Shown one piece after another: positions 6,491 through 38,797 of a DNA stretch of 44,103 nt. Every line of letters starts with the position of its first letter. Position 1 is the first letter of the stretch. The DNA lies in the IMG/VR virus record IMGVR_UViG_3300045988_091239, positions 1-44,103 of that record; one strand, given 5' to 3'. The stretch is from a virus. The notes under the pieces are model-generated. The model was not told where the DNA came from and searched no databases. It saw nothing but the letters and a program-made list of their open reading frames with translations. Position numbers and translations under genes: made by a program.

Positions 6491-6802
6491 ATGTTAATTC
6501 TCCTTGCAATGGCCGTTATTGCGTGTGCGTTTTTCTGCTTTATTGTAGATTGTGCCAGAGAGGAGAGGGCAAAAAAAAGAGTTTCAGAAAGAAAATTATC
6601 TGATGAATTGCTAATGCAATACTTAGATATTCGATTTTCAGACGAAACAGAAGAGCAAAGTGTAAGGCGAAAAATTGACACATTAGAGTGTTTGGCCATT
6701 GAATTGCGAATGAAATATAATGCGTGTGAGGTGGCCAGTGATTTTAAATACATTAAAAACAAAAAACATGGAAAAAGAAAACAAAAAGCCAATTCCGAGT
6801 AA
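6491..6802 (+). CDS. hypothetical membrane-anchored protein
   Basis: First ATG of the 6443..6802 ORF. N-terminal hydrophobic segment MLILLAMAVIACAFFCFIV, then a charged tail. Confidence 0.4.
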   Translation: MLILLAMAVIACAFFCFIVDCAREERAKKRVSERKLSDELLMQYLDIRFSDETEEQSVRRKIDTLECLAIELRMKYNACEVASDFKYIKNKKHGKRKQKANSE

Positions 6803-7379
6803 AAAGGCGTTCACTTTGTCAAAGGCTAAGTTAGCAAGTGGTGGCGGCCTAGATGTTCATTATGAAGTTAGTGAGCAAGACGGCAATGCCAATTACCTCA
6901 ACAAGCACCATGACGAGTGCGCGCAAGACGTTCAAAAAGAACTTAGAGAACTTTTCCAAGAATTGCGGCCAATTGTAGGCAGGATATTCAATATCACGAG
7001 TTTTAAAACTCTGATGGAAACGGACGAGTTTAAAGCGACCGAGCAACAAAAGGCTTTGGGCGATGATTTTGCGCAAGAATGTTTGAACAAAATTGAGGTG
7101 CGCGGCATTTCGTTGAGCGGCAAAGACGATAAAGTAGGCGTTGTTATTACATCCGTTTACGAGGTTGCCAACGGTCAGAAAGTGGCAATCAATACGCCGC
7201 GCATTCGCTTTGATAGTGAAACATGGGGATTTGAGGAGGAACTTGAAAACATTGTTTATGAAATCGAAAACGAGGTTTACGAGTTTCTTTTTATGGGCAA
7301 AAAAGCCGAATTGTCCCTATTTGGTGAAGACCAAGGAGAGGACGAGCAAGGCAACCAAACAGAAGAAGACAACTATTAA
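6768..7379 (+). CDS. hypothetical protein with acidic C-terminal tail
   Basis: ATG at 6768 in an AAAAAACATG context within the 6720..7379 ORF; C-terminus EDQGEDEQGNQTEEDNY. Confidence 0.5.
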   Translation: MEKENKKPIPSKKAFTLSKAKLASGGGLDVHYEVSEQDGNANYLNKHHDECAQDVQKELRELFQELRPIVGRIFNITSFKTLMETDEFKATEQQKALGDDFAQECLNKIEVRGISLSGKDDKVGVVITSVYEVANGQKVAINTPRIRFDSETWGFEEELENIVYEIENEVYEFLFMGKKAELSLFGEDQGEDEQGNQTEEDNY

Positions 7380-7386
7380 TAACATT

Positions 7387-7410
7387 GGCGGAGCATTGCG
7401 CTCCGCCTTT
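7387..7410 (+). terminator. intrinsic terminator
   Basis: GGCGGAGC-attgc-GCTCCGCC followed by TTT. Confidence 0.6.
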
Positions 7411-7421
7411 ATATTACAAAC

Positions 7422-7850
7422 ATGGCCATACTAATAGAAGATGTAGCGTGTTATATGTATGCACGCGATAAAGGCTTTGAGCCACTTATCGACAAACGAT
7501 TTGAAATGCCTATAAGTGTTCGTGTTGATGTGCAGCGGCATTTATTCGGCCGTGGCCACTCGATGGCCGAGAATGAAAAATTTTATCGATATTGTTGGCG
7601 AATATATCCGCACATCTGCCAAGAATGCTTGCGGCCGCTTGGCAATTATTCGGCCGTATATATATCGCACATACGCACGCGCGGAGCGTTTCCCGAAATG
7701 GCGCACGATGTTAGGAATGTGAATGTACTTTGTTTTAAGCATCACAACCAGTGGGAAACTGGCAATAGAAAGGCAATGCGGATATATCCGCGCAATGCCA
7801 TGACAATAGAGCAGCTTACACGGGAGTATCGAGAGTTTTGGCGGCCTTAA
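7422..7850 (+). CDS. HNH / NinG(Rap)-like endonuclease
   Basis: CQEC...ISHIRTRGAFPEMAHDVRNVNVLCFKHHNQWETGN fits the Cys-pair plus H-N-H pattern of HNH/NinG-type nucleases. Confidence 0.5.
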   Translation: MAILIEDVACYMYARDKGFEPLIDKRFEMPISVRVDVQRHLFGRGHSMAENEKFYRYCWRIYPHICQECLRPLGNYSAVYISHIRTRGAFPEMAHDVRNVNVLCFKHHNQWETGNRKAMRIYPRNAMTIEQLTREYREFWRP

Positions 7851-7945
7851 AGTATGCCTAATTGTTATAGAATGTGAACAAGGTGCGTTTTAACGGGTAT
7901 TTGTGTTAACAAAATCCAAAACAATAATATTTATTTGTTTTTTGC

Positions 7946-7976
7946 TTGCAAGTTTCAAATATACTTATTACCTTTG
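7946..7976 (+). promoter_or_regulatory. Bacteroidetes-type promoter driving the ORF-free region (-7 TACCTTTG 7969-7976; weak -33 cTTG 7945-7948)
   Basis: Same TACCTTTGCATTGTGATTAA box as the promoters at 37982 and 38726. Confidence 0.6.
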
Positions 7977-7983
7977 CATTGTG

Positions 7984-8671
7984 ATTAAGAAACACACATA
8001 TAAAGCTTGTTTCGAGGTCACGCAACAAACTTGCCAAAGTATAAATGGTTTCTGAAAGTCGATGCAGGGACAGAAGAGTAAAAAAACAAAGAAGCCTAAG
8101 CCCTTGGTGGTATGGTGAGCGGTCTGCATAACTCCTACCAACGCAAAACATCGTATGCGCGTTGATGTTGGCCCGAAAGGGTGCGGTTGAAAGCCTGAAA
8201 AGATAACCGCTTAAAGTGGCTGATGCCCTTGGAGTTGGGGCGTGGAACTCACCACGCGCTAAAAAAGAGGAACTTCGCACATGCGGACAATAGCCTGTAA
8301 AGTTGGGGTGTTCAAAAAATCCGTAGAGTACGCATTATGCGTAAGTACCCACTTAATCTAGGCATGGCACTTGTAAACCTTTTAGGTTATGCAAGAGTGG
8401 TTGGGCAATAATGTGAGTGAAACCCCGTAGAACTCTACTCACTTAGTGTTGAATGCGCACGAAACAGCACTTATTCAATAAGTGCAGCATCAAGGAGGAC
8501 GCTCCTTGCGCAGGTCAGCAATGCGCTGAAAGCTGAAATCCGCAACGGTGACCAACTATGAAAGCTAGTAGTTTGGTGCTAAGCAAGCGGCAAAGGGCAA
8601 GCCCACGGCTTGGGCTAAGCGAATGCCCCGCGCGGTGTTTTTAGTGTTTTTGACACCGCATTTTTATTTTT
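7984..8671 (+). ncRNA. candidate large (~690 nt) highly structured ncRNA, class not recognised
   Basis: No + strand ORF of 60 aa or more between 7851 and 8622. Flanked by a promoter and an intrinsic terminator. Many local helices, e.g. 8104-8114/8127-8141, GCCC-GAAA-GGGT 8171-8182, 8183-8188/8205-8210, 8240-8257, 8329-8343, 8368-8399, 8413-8418/8437-8442, 8467-8485, 8491-8508, 8551-8577, 8598-8612. Confidence 0.6.
8632..8671 (+). terminator. intrinsic terminator ending the ncRNA candidate
   Basis: GCGGTGT (8632-8638) pairs with ACACCGC (8653-8659), followed by ATTTTTATTTTT. Confidence 0.65.
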
Positions 8672-8679
8672 CTAAAAAG

Positions 8680-8913
8680 ATGGAGGAACTAACTATGACG
8701 AACTTTCTGAACTTTAAGGCGGCAAAAAATTCCGACCTTTGGTGGCTTTGCCTAGCAGATGCCGCAGGCGGCATTCTCGATGAGAGGGATAGTTGGTTGG
8801 CAGTAATTGATGTAAGGGTTGGGCGTAATCTTACAGCCTGTGGCCATAAGTTCCGCATGCCCAGTTTTGACAATTTAAGCCGCGGATGGGTACGTAGGAA
8901 TGTACCCCAATAG
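8680..8913 (+). CDS. hypothetical protein
   Basis: ATG at 8680 in a CTAAAAAGATG context. The track's upstream extension (8623) runs through the terminator hairpin. Confidence 0.4.
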   Translation: MEELTMTNFLNFKAAKNSDLWWLCLADAAGGILDERDSWLAVIDVRVGRNLTACGHKFRMPSFDNLSRGWVRRNVPQ

Positions 8914-9026
8914 GCTGCCTATTCTGTGTTATGCCACACAGCGAACAAGGACAAAAAGCACATTATAAAGGCCAATGGCGCGAGCCTTACCAAATCCGTG
9001 CCATAATTTTAAACTCAAAAAAAAAG

Positions 9027-9329
9027 ATGAAGAAGTATATTAGCAATGCTTTCTCCTTGCAGATGCTAGACACTAGCAAGGAGTTGAACGTAAGAGTTAC
9101 CCCAATCAGTGGGGAGGAGTTTAATGGTGCAAAAGCCACGGCCGTGTCTGCCGTAGGTCACCCCGATACCGCGGCCGTTTTGGGCGTTCCATTCAATAGA
9201 ATGAGCCTTAAAATGGAAAAGGGCGATGAATTATTTGTTGCCCAGCTTATTGGCGGCCGTCTGCCAGAGGGTTGCACCGAGTTGCCACAAGGTTTTAAGT
9301 TCACTTTTCTCAAAGTGACACTACTATAA
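9027..9329 (+). CDS. DUF1874 / STIV B116-like protein
   Basis: ATG at 9027 in an AAAAAAAAGATG context. SNAFSLQML...AVGHPDTAAVLG...NRMSLKMEKGDELFVAQ...GGRLPEG resembles the B116-like family from memory. Confidence 0.5.
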   Translation: MKKYISNAFSLQMLDTSKELNVRVTPISGEEFNGAKATAVSAVGHPDTAAVLGVPFNRMSLKMEKGDELFVAQLIGGRLPEGCTELPQGFKFTFLKVTLL

Positions 9330-9335
9330 CTATAT

Positions 9336-9363
9336 GCTAGTAGCCATAACGGCTACTAGCTTT
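9336..9363 (+). terminator. intrinsic terminator
   Basis: GCTAGTAGCC-ataac-GGCTACTAGC, perfect 10-bp stem followed by TTTG. Confidence 0.65.
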
Positions 9364-9377
9364 GTCGTATATAAAAA

Positions 9378-9578
9378 ATGAATATGGAAAATAAAAGAGG
9401 TGGTGCGCGTAAGCGTGCAGGCAGAAAAAAGTTGGGTAAAACCTCGATAATGGTTTACCTATCGCCCGAAAATGCCGAGTTTGTTCGAGAAATGGCAGAG
9501 AAATATTACAAAACGCTGTCCAGTACGGTGGAAGAGTTCATTGTTCAAGCGAGAGAAAGGGCGGGAAATGAGGGTTAA
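9378..9578 (+). CDS. small basic DNA-binding protein, possibly ribbon-helix-helix
   Basis: Arg/Lys-rich N-terminus, then a predicted beta strand (SIMVYLSPE) and helices, as in the CopG/Arc layout. Confidence 0.4.
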   Translation: MNMENKRGGARKRAGRKKLGKTSIMVYLSPENAEFVREMAEKYYKTLSSTVEEFIVQARERAGNEG

Positions 9579-9894
9579 CAAACCTAACTATGCCGAAATA
9601 TCAAGGCGTAGCGTTCGCGCGGACTTCGCGCCGCGTAAATTCCAACGTGAAATAAGAAAGGAAAGGCCGCAAAGTGATGATGTACGCAGAATAGCGTTTG
9701 TTAATCCGAATAGCGGCTATTTCAAGTATAAAAACTTACTTCTAGGCAAACAAGTGCGCTTACTTCGTGAGGCCATTCTTGGCGGTTGGTTTTGTGAGTT
9801 TCTGAACGACAACGACCGAAAGGCCGTCAATGATGCGGCAGGGTGGAGCAATGAAAAAAAAGAATACTTGTTTGATGGGGTGAAATTCAAATAA
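9568..9894 (+). CDS. hypothetical protein
   Basis: ATG at 9568 within the 9472..9894 ORF; overlaps the previous stop. Confidence 0.45.
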   Translation: MRVNKPNYAEISRRSVRADFAPRKFQREIRKERPQSDDVRRIAFVNPNSGYFKYKNLLLGKQVRLLREAILGGWFCEFLNDNDRKAVNDAAGWSNEKKEYLFDGVKFK

Positions 9895-37958: not shown

Positions 37959-37989
37959 TTTGGTAATTCGGTTTTTCTTTGTACCTTTG
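37959..37989 (+). promoter_or_regulatory. Bacteroidetes-type promoter (TTTG 37959-37962, 19-nt spacer, TACCTTTG 37982-37989)
   Basis: Exact consensus architecture. The downstream 27 nt are identical to copy A (CTTTGCAATGTGATTAATAAACAACAC). Confidence 0.75.
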
Positions 37990-38012
37990 CAATGTGATTA
38001 ATAAACAACACA

Positions 38013-38033
38013 ACTGATACGGCAGTTTCCGTA
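38013..38033 (+). promoter_or_regulatory. 5' leader hairpin/pseudoknot element, copy B
   Basis: ACTG 38013-38016; TACGG-CAGTTT-CCGTA 38018-38033. The C->T and G->A changes relative to copy A are compensatory. Confidence 0.6.
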
Positions 38034-38076
38034 AAAATAAAAATGGTGGGGTCACACCGAAACAACGATTAAAAAG

Positions 38077-38725: not shown

Positions 38726-38733
38726 TACCTTTG
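38726..38733 (+). promoter_or_regulatory. -7 element TACCTTTG of a third cassette promoter (weak -33)
   Basis: TACCTTTGCATTGTG box shared with 7969 and 37982. Confidence 0.55.
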
Positions 38734-38754
38734 CATTGTGTTAAGGTTGACACG

Positions 38755-38775
38755 ACTGGCTAAGCAGTTACTTAG
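38755..38775 (+). promoter_or_regulatory. 5' leader hairpin/pseudoknot element, copy C
   Basis: ACTG 38755-38758; CTAAG-CAGTTA-CTTAG 38760-38775. The stem sequence is fully replaced, but pairing, spacing and loop CAGT are kept. Confidence 0.55.
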
Positions 38776-38797
38776 AAATTTAAAAACAAAAAAAAGT

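Follow-up and report, generated by a model that had tools for sequence, protein, structure and literature searches.

A non-coding interval of approximately 690 nt in a Bacteroidales gut phage (positions 7985 to 8672 of the window, by which we mean the whole 44,103-nt stretch of viral DNA that was analyzed) raises the question of whether it specifies a functional RNA and, if so, how that RNA acts. A first-pass annotation had likened its size and context to those of the "ornate large" phage RNAs, without asserting membership. Our best reading is that the interval is a new, narrowly distributed structured phage RNA, either trans-acting or an operon leader, in an anti-defense locus. That the interval is a functional element at the RNA level, in cis or in trans, is highly probable. 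The narrower and joint explanation, that it is a functional structured non-coding RNA of the + strand that most likely acts in trans, is the best we can offer and is put forward tentatively. The locus opens the question of a trans-acting decoy versus a giant operon leader.

The interval lies in a 1.7-kb cassette (7851 to 9567) in which the RNA is followed by a 72-amino-acid (aa) open reading frame (ORF), a DUF1874/AcrIII-1-like ring nuclease, and a ribbon-helix-helix (RHH) regulator. The cassette is an insertion relative to phages L012 and L015; sister phages without the region are L012, L015, the P0008/P0009 lineages, and PD491P1, and lineages whose NinG-like HNH protein is at most 80% identical also have no cassette. 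Because this block is an accessory cassette missing from sister phages, the RNA most likely acts in trans. The surroundings are a replication/recombination module with an exonuclease, a NinG-like HNH protein, and SSB adjacent; the HNH protein has 142 aa and is not IscB. The first-pass annotation did not include this context, in which the RNA heads an inserted accessory cassette with an AcrIII-1-like gene. Two sets of possible cassette borders were discarded. An inverted repeat (7829-7853/8711-8735) that might have bounded a mobile element matches at 20 of 25 positions, a score reached by 11 of 40 shuffles, and the second copy of the direct repeat CTAACTATG at 8689 and 9584 lies off the gene start, so that the repeat is probably due to chance. 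The features of the cassette are the following.

7934-7947, + strand: T-rich block TTTGTTTTTTGCTT, candidate -33 element of a Bacteroidetes-type promoter, invariant in all homologs.
7969-7993, + strand: -7 box TACCTTTG (7969-7976) and conserved putative transcript start GCATTGTGATTAAGAAAC, a 25-nt invariant block.
7985-8310, + strand: 5' domain, the sole part common to every variant, L060 included; 14% variable sites.
8311-8410, + strand: optional middle module with hairpins 8329-8343 and 8368-8399, delimited by deletion variants.
8411-8672, + strand: 3' domain with 15% variable sites and invariant blocks of 40 nt and 74 nt.
8632-8672, + strand: predicted intrinsic-terminator-like hairpin with an 8-bp stem and a 12-nt U-rich loop, then AUUUUUAUUUUU.
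8695-8913, + strand: small ORF72/ORF77, 72 aa from the ATG at 8695 or 77 aa from the ATG at 8680, recognized by its substitution pattern.
9027-9329, + strand: DUF1874/AcrIII-1-family protein, candidate viral ring nuclease; start probably at 9027, from the alignment.
9378-9578, + strand: 66-aa RHH (Arc-like) protein with a weak PHROG match to an Arc-like repressor (E = 1.7e-4).

Several elements suggest how the RNA would be made. The T-rich block upstream of the -7 box may serve as the -33 element, and the proposed kinship of the -7 box with the promoters of protein cassettes was borne out, as similar boxes with the same downstream TGTGATTAA stand ahead of protein genes at 1831, 37982, and 38726. 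This conserved Bacteroidetes-type phage promoter, with its -7 box at 7969, would drive synthesis of the RNA from a predicted start near 7985. At the other end, the hairpin GCGGTGT/ACACCGC at 8632 to 8659, then ATTTTTATTTTT, is present as described and is invariant in 13 of the 13 homologs that carry it. Over 8632 to 8672 the predicted folding energy is -12.6 kcal/mol (z-score, -4.3), and 0 of 200 shuffles were as stable; a standard terminator scan missed this hairpin because of its long loop. The hairpin and U tract are the probable end of most transcripts, which would give an abundant RNA of about 0.69 kb, and leaky read-through past 8672 would supply the three downstream genes. As these genes have no promoter of their own, some read-through is required. 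The earlier picture of a self-contained transcription unit therefore stands only in part: promoter-like and terminator-like elements are conserved, but the terminator tail (8672) lies too close to the ATG at 8680 or 8695 for a promoter to fit between them, so that the RNA is probably the first part of an operon.

Given this lack of promoter room, it is equally natural to see the RNA as a leader that acts purely in cis, and it may be the leader of the AcrIII-1-like operon. The interval would then be a 690-nt structured 5' untranslated region of the ORF72/AcrIII-1-like/RHH operon with the 8632-8672 hairpin as a regulated attenuator, and the RNA would only set the timing or level of the downstream anti-defense genes or stabilize their mRNA. 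Only 8 to 23 nt separate the U tract from the next start codon, with no -7 box between them; an ORF72 homolog always comes after the RNA, even where it has diverged to 77 to 79% identity; and in L060 the ORF72 start region follows the 5' domain directly, with no terminator in between. The presence of an RHH gene fits as well, since anti-CRISPR operons are typically under the tight control of a small DNA-binding repressor. However, a length of 690 nt with optional modules far exceeds that of known attenuators or riboswitches, no Rfam cis-regulatory family matches, and constraint is uniform over the whole length instead of being concentrated near the terminator. There is also no conserved anti-terminator pairing, as the sole candidate (CGGUG at 8546 to 8550) is not conserved in L007-type sequences. 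Weighing both sides, we regard a leader of this kind as possible, if on the unlikely side.

For a structured RNA, whichever way it acts, the main evidence comes from paired changes among homologs. The homolog set consists of 14 distinct sequences that are 89 to 98% identical and all belong to one phage clade, and with so few and such similar sequences each compensated pair rests on one to three lineages. Across 17 local helices, pairing holds in 97.2% of cells, and both partners have been substituted in 8 pairs, compared to 2.5 ± 1.2 such pairs in shuffles (0 of 500) and 0 to 2 in slid controls. Three helices have at least two compensated pairs, versus none in 60 column permutations, and the flanking coding alignments, with about 2.5 times more variable columns, yielded only 0 to 1 such local helices. 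Covariation above controls was thus found for local hairpins, at least four of them, as well as for a candidate tetraloop receptor. Where only one side of a pair has changed in these 17 helices, the outcome is mostly a G-U pair, which favors the + strand. The local elements are the following.

8095-8115, + strand: candidate 11-nt GAAA-tetraloop receptor CCUAAG-(mini hairpin)-UAUGG, exact consensus with covariation.
8139-8164, + strand: hairpin CAACGC/GCGUUG with a 14-nt loop, absent from the first-pass list of helices.
8171-8182, + strand: GAAA tetraloop hairpin GCCC-GAAA-GGGU with an invariant loop.
8183-8210, + strand: 7-bp hairpin GCGGUUG/UAACCGC with an A-rich 14-nt loop, predicted in minimum free energy (MFE) and centroid folds.
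8240-8257, + strand: hairpin GCGUGG/CCACGC, 5 of 6 pairs invariant.
8454-8512, + strand: junction closed by UGCG/CGCA and enclosing hairpins 8467-8485 and 8491-8508; fold z-score of -3.7 for 8450-8515.
8522-8544, + strand: short stem UGCG/CGCA that never varies, with an invariant 15-nt loop CUGAAAGCUGAAAUC.
8551-8577, + strand: bulged hairpin with a GAAAGCUA loop and covarying pairs.

The clearest of these hairpins vary in sequence while conserving pairing. The hairpin at 8139 to 8164 stays paired in all sequences, and in L056 two adjacent pairs have changed on both sides (A-U to G-C and C-G to U-A). Within the junction, hairpin 8491-8497/8502-8508 has three pairs changed on both sides plus one G.U, and hairpin 8467-8485 is paired in two versions, GCACUUAU/AUAAGUGC and GCACAUG/CAUGUGC. 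In the bulged hairpin, pair 8551-8577 is seen as A-U, G.U, and G-C and pair 8557-8570 as U-A, U.G, and C-G across homologs, and L007-type sequences lengthen the stem by one extra compensated pair. The closing pair of the GAAA hairpin is G.U in some sequences and G-C in others, which fits pairing on the + strand but not on the - strand, and the one-sided changes in hairpin 8329-8343, where this is present, are of the G-U type. Most helices of the RNA never vary across homologs. The stem at 8183 to 8210 is invariant, and the alignment consequently speaks neither for nor against it; the stem-loop at 8522 to 8544 sits inside a 40-nt invariant block (8508 to 8547); and hairpin 8240-8257 overlaps a 20-nt invariant block (8237 to 8256), although its terminal pair is broken in five sequences.

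The "ornate" architecture fared less well, with few helices supported, one closing helix contradicted, and an ordinary folding energy. Most of the dozen or so local helices drawn in the first-pass annotation are indeed complementary where they were placed, but positive evidence exists for only about 4 to 5 of some 16. Helix 8003-8011/8024-8032 is weak, with a C.A mismatch in the window and A.C in 9 of 12 homologs. The long-range pairing of 8096-8103 with 8612-8619 has an A.A mismatch, all three of its three substitutions are disruptive, and variant L060 has no 3' partner for it, while the pairing of GGGG with CCCC (8305-8308/8423-8426) is retained in deletion variants only as G.U or G.A. Secondary structure described as dense is not evident from energies: the MFE z-score of the whole region is -1.9 on the + strand and -3.4 on the - strand, and four length-matched coding segments of this genome range from -0.3 to -4.7. 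Set against these coding controls, the z-score is uninformative as evidence of structure and was discarded; values stand out only at 8450 to 8515 (-3.7) and at the terminator. Likewise, the roughly ten GAAA motifs that had been counted are present (10 copies), but at 14.5/kb versus 11.1/kb genome-wide they are not enriched. A family this narrow, with 14 sequences from one clade, puts a comparative proof of the full structure out of reach for now.

The candidate receptor is the most specific of the local elements. It has CCUAAG and UAUGG opposed, the CC:GG pairs, and the flanking G.U pair of the 11-nt receptor, to which its sequence corresponds, and the 44-kb window, searched on both strands, has a single copy of the pattern CCTAAG-N(3-30)-TATGG, at 8095 to 8115. 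Three of its seven pairs changed on both sides, compared to 0.8 in shuffles and 0 in slid controls. In L007, C8095 to A is accompanied by G8115 to U and C8101 to G by G8110 to C, and in L049, G8100 to A converts G.U to A-U; no sequence has lost any of the five defining pairs, and two of these have been preserved via changes on both sides. The element shares this exact consensus with the GAAA tetraloop/11-nt receptor modules of large self-folding RNAs (group I/II introns and RNase P); here its flanking pairs are compensated, and an invariant GAAA tetraloop hairpin lies 56 nt downstream. Unlike in those RNAs, there is no intron or RNase P core, the capping hairpin has only 3 bp, and an alternative helix uses the same bases. 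This competitor, helix 8104-8114/8127-8141 of the first-pass annotation, is compatible with the data but shows no two-sided changes. Judging from these motifs, a GAAA tetraloop probably docks into the receptor, and the approximately 0.69-kb RNA would fold into many local hairpins, with this probable tertiary contact in addition.

The RNA is modular, as natural variants without 8311-8410 and one without 8313-8669 exist. The middle module is missing from four variants (L007/L061, contig 102932, and L051), and the 3' domain is missing only in a single assembled variant, L060, which keeps 7985 to 8312 and then joins the T-rich tail directly, without 8313-8669 and its terminator. The RNA would accordingly be built from separable parts, namely the 5' domain, the optional insert, and the 3' domain. 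Such large natural deletions mean that large parts of the RNA are dispensable or that those assemblies are defective. A further sequence, L059, which appeared to offer a different 5' context, was set aside as a low-coverage chimera with a priA-like gene.

The interval is under strong purifying selection. In nine genomes, 11 to 15% of sites are variable in 7985 to 8672, compared to 45 to 60% of third codon positions and 28% of sites in the spacer at 7851 to 7933. This constraint is like that on first and second codon positions and about as tight as in neighboring genes, and the RNA is 91 to 98% identical in genomes where the downstream ORF is only 77 to 79% identical. These figures bear on the proposal that the interval is non-functional filler, either a spacer gained recently or what is left of a decayed gene, whose apparent conservation would only reflect the close kinship of 14 genomes. 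Its copies are all 89 to 98% identical within a single clade, large natural deletions occur, the folding energy is unremarkable, and no distant homolog was found. Against this, third codon positions are 3 to 4 times and the 7851-7933 spacer twice as variable in the same genomes, compensatory changes exceed the permutation, slide, and coding-region controls, and in translation the interval resembles no gene of related phages. A pseudogene remnant in particular was rejected, because tblastx against all non-family loci gave no match. We consider filler an improbable account.

Slightly less probable still is a DNA-level element, in which the hairpins would work at the level of DNA, for instance as an origin of replication, a protein-binding array, or a site of recombination or packaging. 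Its site beside the exonuclease, the NinG-like HNH protein, and SSB would suit such an element, Watson-Crick compensation alone cannot separate RNA from single-stranded DNA, and the - strand folds at a z-score of -3.4. But L012, L015, the P0008/P0009 lineages, and PD491P1 are without the region and presumably viable, which means that it is neither an essential origin nor an essential packaging site. The region also has no iterons or direct repeats, has a G+C content above the genome average instead of being AT rich, and falls exactly between promoter and terminator, and its one-sided changes favor G-U pairs on the + strand.

The least plausible alternative, that the - strand ORF at 7906 to 8280 or one or more small + strand ORFs are translated, is contradicted by the absence of codon periodicity in any phase (phase being common to both strands) and by broken reading frames, and we rejected it. 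As the first-pass annotation had stated, there is no + strand ORF of at least 60 aa in 7851 to 8679, where the longest has 50 aa (7903 to 8055) and spans the promoter, and the single long ORF is the one on the - strand (124 aa). Variable sites in 7985 to 8672 divide 38/42/40 by phase (P = 0.9), with no 3-nt periodicity, whereas all six flanking genes show a third-position excess (P from 6e-6 to 1e-25); the codon-periodicity test on the homolog alignment thus marks the interval as non-coding on both strands. Single-nucleotide gaps account for 99 of the 121 internal gaps in the alignment, with a further 10 of 2 nt and 8 of 3 nt. Each + strand frame of the region contains 14 to 19 stops. A - strand ORF of 103 to 153 aa is open in 9 of 12 homologs, but it is disrupted in the other three (L003, L007, and L049), 1-nt indels are scattered along it, it would be antisense to all other genes and cross the promoter, and long - strand ORFs are frequent opposite genuine genes in this purine-skewed genome. 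Its earlier dismissal as spurious is upheld.

The suggested kinship with GOLLD and ROOL found no support. A search of the window with cmscan and 4,227 Rfam 15 models gave 0 matches at gathering thresholds, and at E values up to 10 the stretch from 7800 to 8750 had only two spurious matches, to a Tetrahymena snoRNA and an actinobacterial sRNA. The models of GOLLD (conserved 3' core) and ROOL matched at neither level, and none was hit at E ≤ 10 for HEARO/IscB omega RNA, OLE, raiA, tmRNA, RNase P, 6S, group I/II introns, or self-cleaving ribozymes. Like GOLLD and ROOL, the RNA is phage encoded, ORF-less, and several hundred nucleotides long, with many hairpins and variable or optional subdomains; GOLLD itself comprises a conserved part and a less conserved part (PMC12286853). 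In phages and prophages, GOLLD and ROOL frequently have tRNA genes or tRNA islands as neighbors (PMC12286853), whereas here, in agreement with the first-pass annotation, ARAGORN found no tRNA or tmRNA in the 44-kb window. The RNA further differs in its lack of an Rfam match, its Bacteroidales host group, and its tiny one-clade family, and a long-range or pseudoknotted architecture is not demonstrated here, the proposed long-range helix being contradicted.

Searches for distant homologs were confined in outcome to the same clade. This was true of blastn against INPHARED phages and of exact 17-, 19-, and 20-mer scans of IMG/VR, JGI metagenomes, and GTDB genomes, both of which returned only same-clade or chance matches; candidates from the k-mer scans were checked with nhmmer, and chance matches lay inside ORFs or in unrelated taxa. 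With tblastx, no translated similarity of 7985-8672 was found outside its own family. At approximately 74 other DUF1874-bearing phage loci, neither nhmmer nor two covariance models built here from the RNA family detected a homolog, and the anti-defense link therefore rests on adjacency in a single clade. The general importance of the RNA family may be limited for the same reason of narrowness. Other candidate identities were discarded along the way: a CRISPR-like or ToxI-like repeat array (no direct repeats in the region), an antisense regulator (complementarity to phage genes not beyond chance, and neither a target nor a partner came to light), and a DGR or retron template (no reverse transcriptase among scanned proteins, and the region is not repeated elsewhere).

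Within the preferred trans-acting reading, the RNA would most likely act during host takeover or counter-defense, perhaps as a sponge or decoy that occupies an RNA-binding or defense factor of the host. The bolder proposal that it is a new phage counter-defense factor, a large, tertiary-folded, and possibly self-assembling RNA that disarms RNA-sensing host defense, is speculative and in our view doubtful. On that proposal the RNA would be produced in large amounts as the first element of an AcrIII-1 operon, and the defense in question might be target recognition by type III CRISPR, RNases activated by cOA, or some other immune protein that binds RNA. If true, a role could be assigned to an "ornate" phage RNA for the first time; of the known large structured RNAs of phages, GOLLD and ROOL among them, none to our knowledge has an established function. 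In a limited literature search, we found no such RNA described from Bacteroidales gut phages or inside an anti-defense cassette. Racrs are phage-encoded non-coding RNAs in or near anti-CRISPR loci (PMC10651486). Like RNA anti-CRISPRs (Racrs, viral crRNA-like RNAs, and rAcrIIA1), the RNA here adjoins an anti-CRISPR-type gene, the AcrIII-1-like one, with which it is predicted to be cotranscribed; but Racrs are short and imitate CRISPR repeats or guide RNAs, and this RNA has approximately 690 nt and contains no internal repeats. Rfam CRISPR direct-repeat models did not match 7985-8672. The element is short enough for deletion and lies in an accessory module missing from sister phages, and the natural truncation variants together with the linkage to a ring-nuclease anti-CRISPR homolog provide a concrete setting for questions about its role.

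The cassette resembles acr-aca operons in its strong phage promoter, small anti-defense gene, and small DNA-binding RHH protein, all in one accessory cassette, and by analogy to Aca the RHH protein is a candidate regulator of the cassette. It differs in having a 690-nt structured non-coding segment with its own terminator between promoter and genes, and we know of no described acr operon with such a segment. The product of 9027-9329 scores 24.5 bits against PF08960, just under the 26-bit cutoff, and has PDB matches to 2x4i, 2j6b, 6scf, and 2j85. The catalytic His47 aligns with its GH motif, and the His of this motif is invariant in five aligned homologs. By sequence, the protein thus has the features of AcrIII-1, namely DUF1874 family membership and the catalytic His (His47 of SIRV1 gp29). 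It is 43% identical to the product of the THSA-485A DUF1874 gene, which was shown to block cA4-dependent type III CRISPR defense (bioRxiv 10.1101/778746). ORF72 had no match in Pfam or PHROG, and its AlphaFold model (pLDDT, 42) was unusable as a clue to function. Its substitutions are biased to third positions (P = 6e-6), and homologs of ORF72/ORF77 form only six clusters in 5.8 billion proteins; the four contexts retrieved for these clusters are all identical, with the ORF always following the RNA.

The genome in the window (~44 kb) is that of a Bacteroidales siphovirus with all genes on the + strand. Parabacteroides phage PD491P1, Bacteroides phages BKO1-3 and C1_85S2P, and Alistipes phage AS73P1 have large terminases that share 68-69% identity with the one encoded here. 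As the first-pass annotation had stated, no + strand ORF of at least 60 aa lies between the NinG-named HNH protein and the next gene, and no tRNA was found in the window; the sole long ORF in the interval is on the minus strand (7906-8280). In sister phages with a 75-80% identical NinG (L012, L015, and the P0008/P0009 lineages), NinG directly adjoins a homolog of the window gene 9568-9894, and 7851-9567 is therefore an inserted accessory cassette of ~1.7 kb. The locus contains the following features:

7422-7850, + strand: HNH protein, 142 aa, named NinG by sources, 5' neighbor of the ORF-less interval
7851-9567, + strand: cassette of promoter, ORF-less stretch, 72/77-aa ORF, DUF1874 protein, and RHH protein
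7969-7976, + strand: -7 box TACCTTTG
8632-8659, + strand: terminator-like hairpin, then AUUUUUAUUUUU
9027-9329: DUF1874/AcrIII-1-family protein (ORF listed as 8931-9329; probable start 9027 from homolog alignment)
Last cassette gene: 66-aa Arc-like RHH protein

The RNA element is embedded in an anti-defense-type cassette. The DUF1874 protein matches SIRV1 gp29/ORF114, AFV3-109, the AcrIII-1-cA4 complex 6scf, and STIV B116, and it keeps the catalytic His47 position. Its closest cultured homolog, the THSA-485A gene (43% identical), experimentally blocks cA4-dependent type III CRISPR immunity (bioRxiv 10.1101/778746). For the 72/77-aa ORF (ORF72; ATG 8695 or 8680), a set of 5.8 billion proteins contains six clusters of homologs, with the same context in all those retrieved (4/6). 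The 113-nt spacer 8914-9026, which separates ORF72 from the probable start of the DUF1874 gene, has short palindromes; two homologous loci (L047 and L048) carry an additional 82-aa gene between the two genes. At the left genome end, a C-5 cytosine DNA methyltransferase (27-935; Pfam E = 2.5e-40) may be an additional counter-defense (anti-restriction) gene.

The proposed promoter family is borne out in sequence: the -7 box of the RNA region recurs before three protein genes (1831, 37982, and 38726), where the boxes share the downstream sequence TGTGATTAA... The copies at 1831-1890, 37982-38040, and 38726-38790 have the -7 box and the first ~20 nt of the predicted transcript (TGTGATTAATAAACAACAC) in common. 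In two or three of them a short conserved hairpin (e.g., CACGGCAGTTTCCGTG) comes next, which may serve one temporal class as a shared operator or leader element. The hairpin claimed at the 3' end of the unit is also real, with a stability unusual for its composition (z -4.3), and was overlooked by a standard terminator scan because its loop is 12 nt. Since the distance from the U-tract end (8672) to the next start codon (8680/8695) leaves no promoter space, the three downstream genes would have to be reached by read-through. Other strong terminator-like hairpins lie 3' of gene 6720-7379 (7387-7407) and 3' of the DUF1874 gene (9336-9360), the latter of which would split DUF1874 from the RHH gene.

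As far as can be judged from sequence, the region 7985-8672 is non-coding and functional. Its variable columns fall evenly by phase (38/42/40, p = 0.9), with no 3-nt periodic conservation among homologs, so that the region withstands the refutation test set by the first-pass annotation; third-position excess is strong in all six flanking genes (p 6e-6 to 1e-25). Internal gaps in the RNA alignment number 99 of 1 nt, 10 of 2 nt, and 8 of 3 nt. The minus-strand ORF, previously called spurious-looking, stays open in nine homologs out of 12 and is broken in three, and we regard it as a by-product of the purine-rich + strand because its substitution pattern is equally aperiodic. Across nine genomes, the share of variable sites in the RNA is 14% in the 5' part, 11% in the middle, and 15% in the 3' part, compared with 45-60% at third codon positions, 8-14% at first and second positions, and 28% in the spacer 7851-7933. 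Where identity of the downstream ORF has dropped to 77-79%, the RNA still retains 91-98%.

The predicted structure of the region is partly shown by substitution patterns. Folding energy carries no evidence here, since the whole-region z scores (-1.9 on the + strand and -3.4 on the - strand) fall within the range of four coding controls (-0.3 to -4.7), and the claim of dense secondary structure fails by this measure; the notable segments are just 8450-8515 (z -3.7) and the terminator. A search of the alignment for complementary stretches in which both partners of a pair had changed recovered three helices with at least two such pairs, versus none in 60 column permutations; flanking coding alignments have ~2.5x more variable columns yet yielded 0-1 local cases. 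Scoring of 17 local helices over all 14 aligned sequences gave 97.2% paired cells and 8 two-sided pair changes; shuffles gave 2.5 +/- 1.2 (0 of 500) and slid controls 0-2. One-sided changes in these helices are mostly G-U intermediates, which fits the + strand. The supported hairpins are as follows:

8139-8144/8159-8164: two-sided changes; absent from the first-pass list
8467-8485: substitution evidence
8491-8497/8502-8508: substitution evidence
8551-8559/8568-8577: substitution evidence

Among the local helices drawn earlier, 8467-8485, 8491-8508, and 8551-8577 are upheld by compensation, and there is little to support 8003-8011/8024-8032. An A.A mismatch inside the long-range helix 8096-8103/8612-8619 and three substitutions that disrupt it argue against that pairing. 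Several helices (8171-8182, 8183-8210, 8274-8287, 8454-8457/8509-8512, 8522-8544, 8598-8612, and the terminator) hardly vary, and the alignment therefore speaks neither for nor against them. The reported abundance of GAAA is no enrichment (14.5/kb vs 11.1/kb). UGAAAG (4 copies, at 8526-8540, 8052-8059, 8187-8203, and 8557-8564) and CUAAG (3 copies, at 8096-8100, 8579-8583, and 8615-8619) occur 8-9-fold above the genome, mostly in predicted loops or junctions, and could be protein-binding or tertiary-contact motifs.

With both strands of the 44-kb window considered, there is one exact match to the 11-nt GAAA-tetraloop receptor consensus (CCUAAG...UAUGG), at 8095-8115, upstream of the invariant GAAA hairpin 8171-8182. 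The pairs that flank it show compensation in L007 and L049 (3 of 7 changed on both sides vs 0.8 in shuffles). Because the earlier-proposed helix 8104-8114/8127-8141, compatible with the data and lacking two-sided changes, uses the same bases, the receptor is a candidate that may represent one of two alternative conformers. Segment 8311-8410 is missing in four genomes, and L060 (a 14-kb Logan contig, SRR23512197; 2524-3022) lacks 8313-8669, i.e., the 3' half of the RNA and the terminator, its 5' domain being joined to a T/A-rich tail just ahead of the ORF72 start; this is a single contig, either a real genome or an assembly artifact. These deletion variants indicate separable domains, with the 5' domain alone universal.

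It is likely that the region functions at the RNA level in one way or another. Our preferred reading, held tentatively and at somewhat short of an even chance for its four steps jointly, is that the promoter would drive an abundant ~0.69 kb RNA ending mostly at 8660-8672; that this RNA would fold into hairpin-rich domains with a tetraloop-receptor contact; that it would act in trans in host takeover or counter-defense; and that leaky termination would supply the ORF72, AcrIII-1-like, and RHH genes. The leading alternative, given less weight than the preferred reading, is that the element serves in cis only, as a giant leader or attenuator for those genes. The absence of an internal promoter and the L060 architecture speak for it; element size, uniform constraint along the RNA, and the lack of a conserved anti-terminator speak against it. 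Given the constrained variation and the compensated hairpins, non-functional filler is improbable. A DNA-level element is marginally more so, since sister phages lack the region and one-sided changes are mostly of the G-U type on the + strand. Hidden protein coding, given the aperiodic substitutions and the broken minus-strand ORF, is the least credible of all.

The RNA element is a real and conserved one that does not code for protein and is structured at least in places. The first-pass observation and interpretation stand in part, without the long-range helix 8096-8103/8612-8619 and without membership of GOLLD or ROOL. Those RNAs are alike only loosely, as long, ORF-less, hairpin-rich phage RNAs of unassigned role (PMC12286853), and differ in that the RNA here has neither a covariance-model match nor a tRNA neighborhood. 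No Rfam family matched the whole window at gathering thresholds or, apart from two spurious hits, 7800-8750 at E up to 10. The RNA shares with RNA anti-CRISPRs (PMC10651486) a position in an acr-type locus; its size is ten times theirs, it lacks repeats, and it matched no Rfam CRISPR repeat model.

Protein-guided and k-mer searches of IMG/VR, JGI/ENA metagenomes, and the Logan/ENA gene index recovered 14 distinct copies (89-98% identical), with none in GTDB representative genomes or among INPHARED phages; no gap of this kind occurs in PD491P1, a cultured relative. Covariance models of the two cores with the best support (8088-8215 and 8450-8582) had no match in 716 kb of phage loci that are related or carry a DUF1874 gene. 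The element is an unrecognised family limited to a single small clade within the gut Bacteroidales phages. In a low-coverage contig (L059:1-252), almost certainly an assembly chimera, a priA-like bacterial gene is joined to the RNA at CGTGGAACTCACCACGCGC, a string that both share (window 8241-8259). In many unrelated phages, stretches of 0.4-1.5 kb without an ORF of at least 50 aa, in which Rfam accounts for tRNA clusters and DUF805b hairpins only, lie at most 4 kb from a DUF1874 gene (L116:701-2219, L115:7014-8041, L126:2291-3278, L108:5287-6058, and others).
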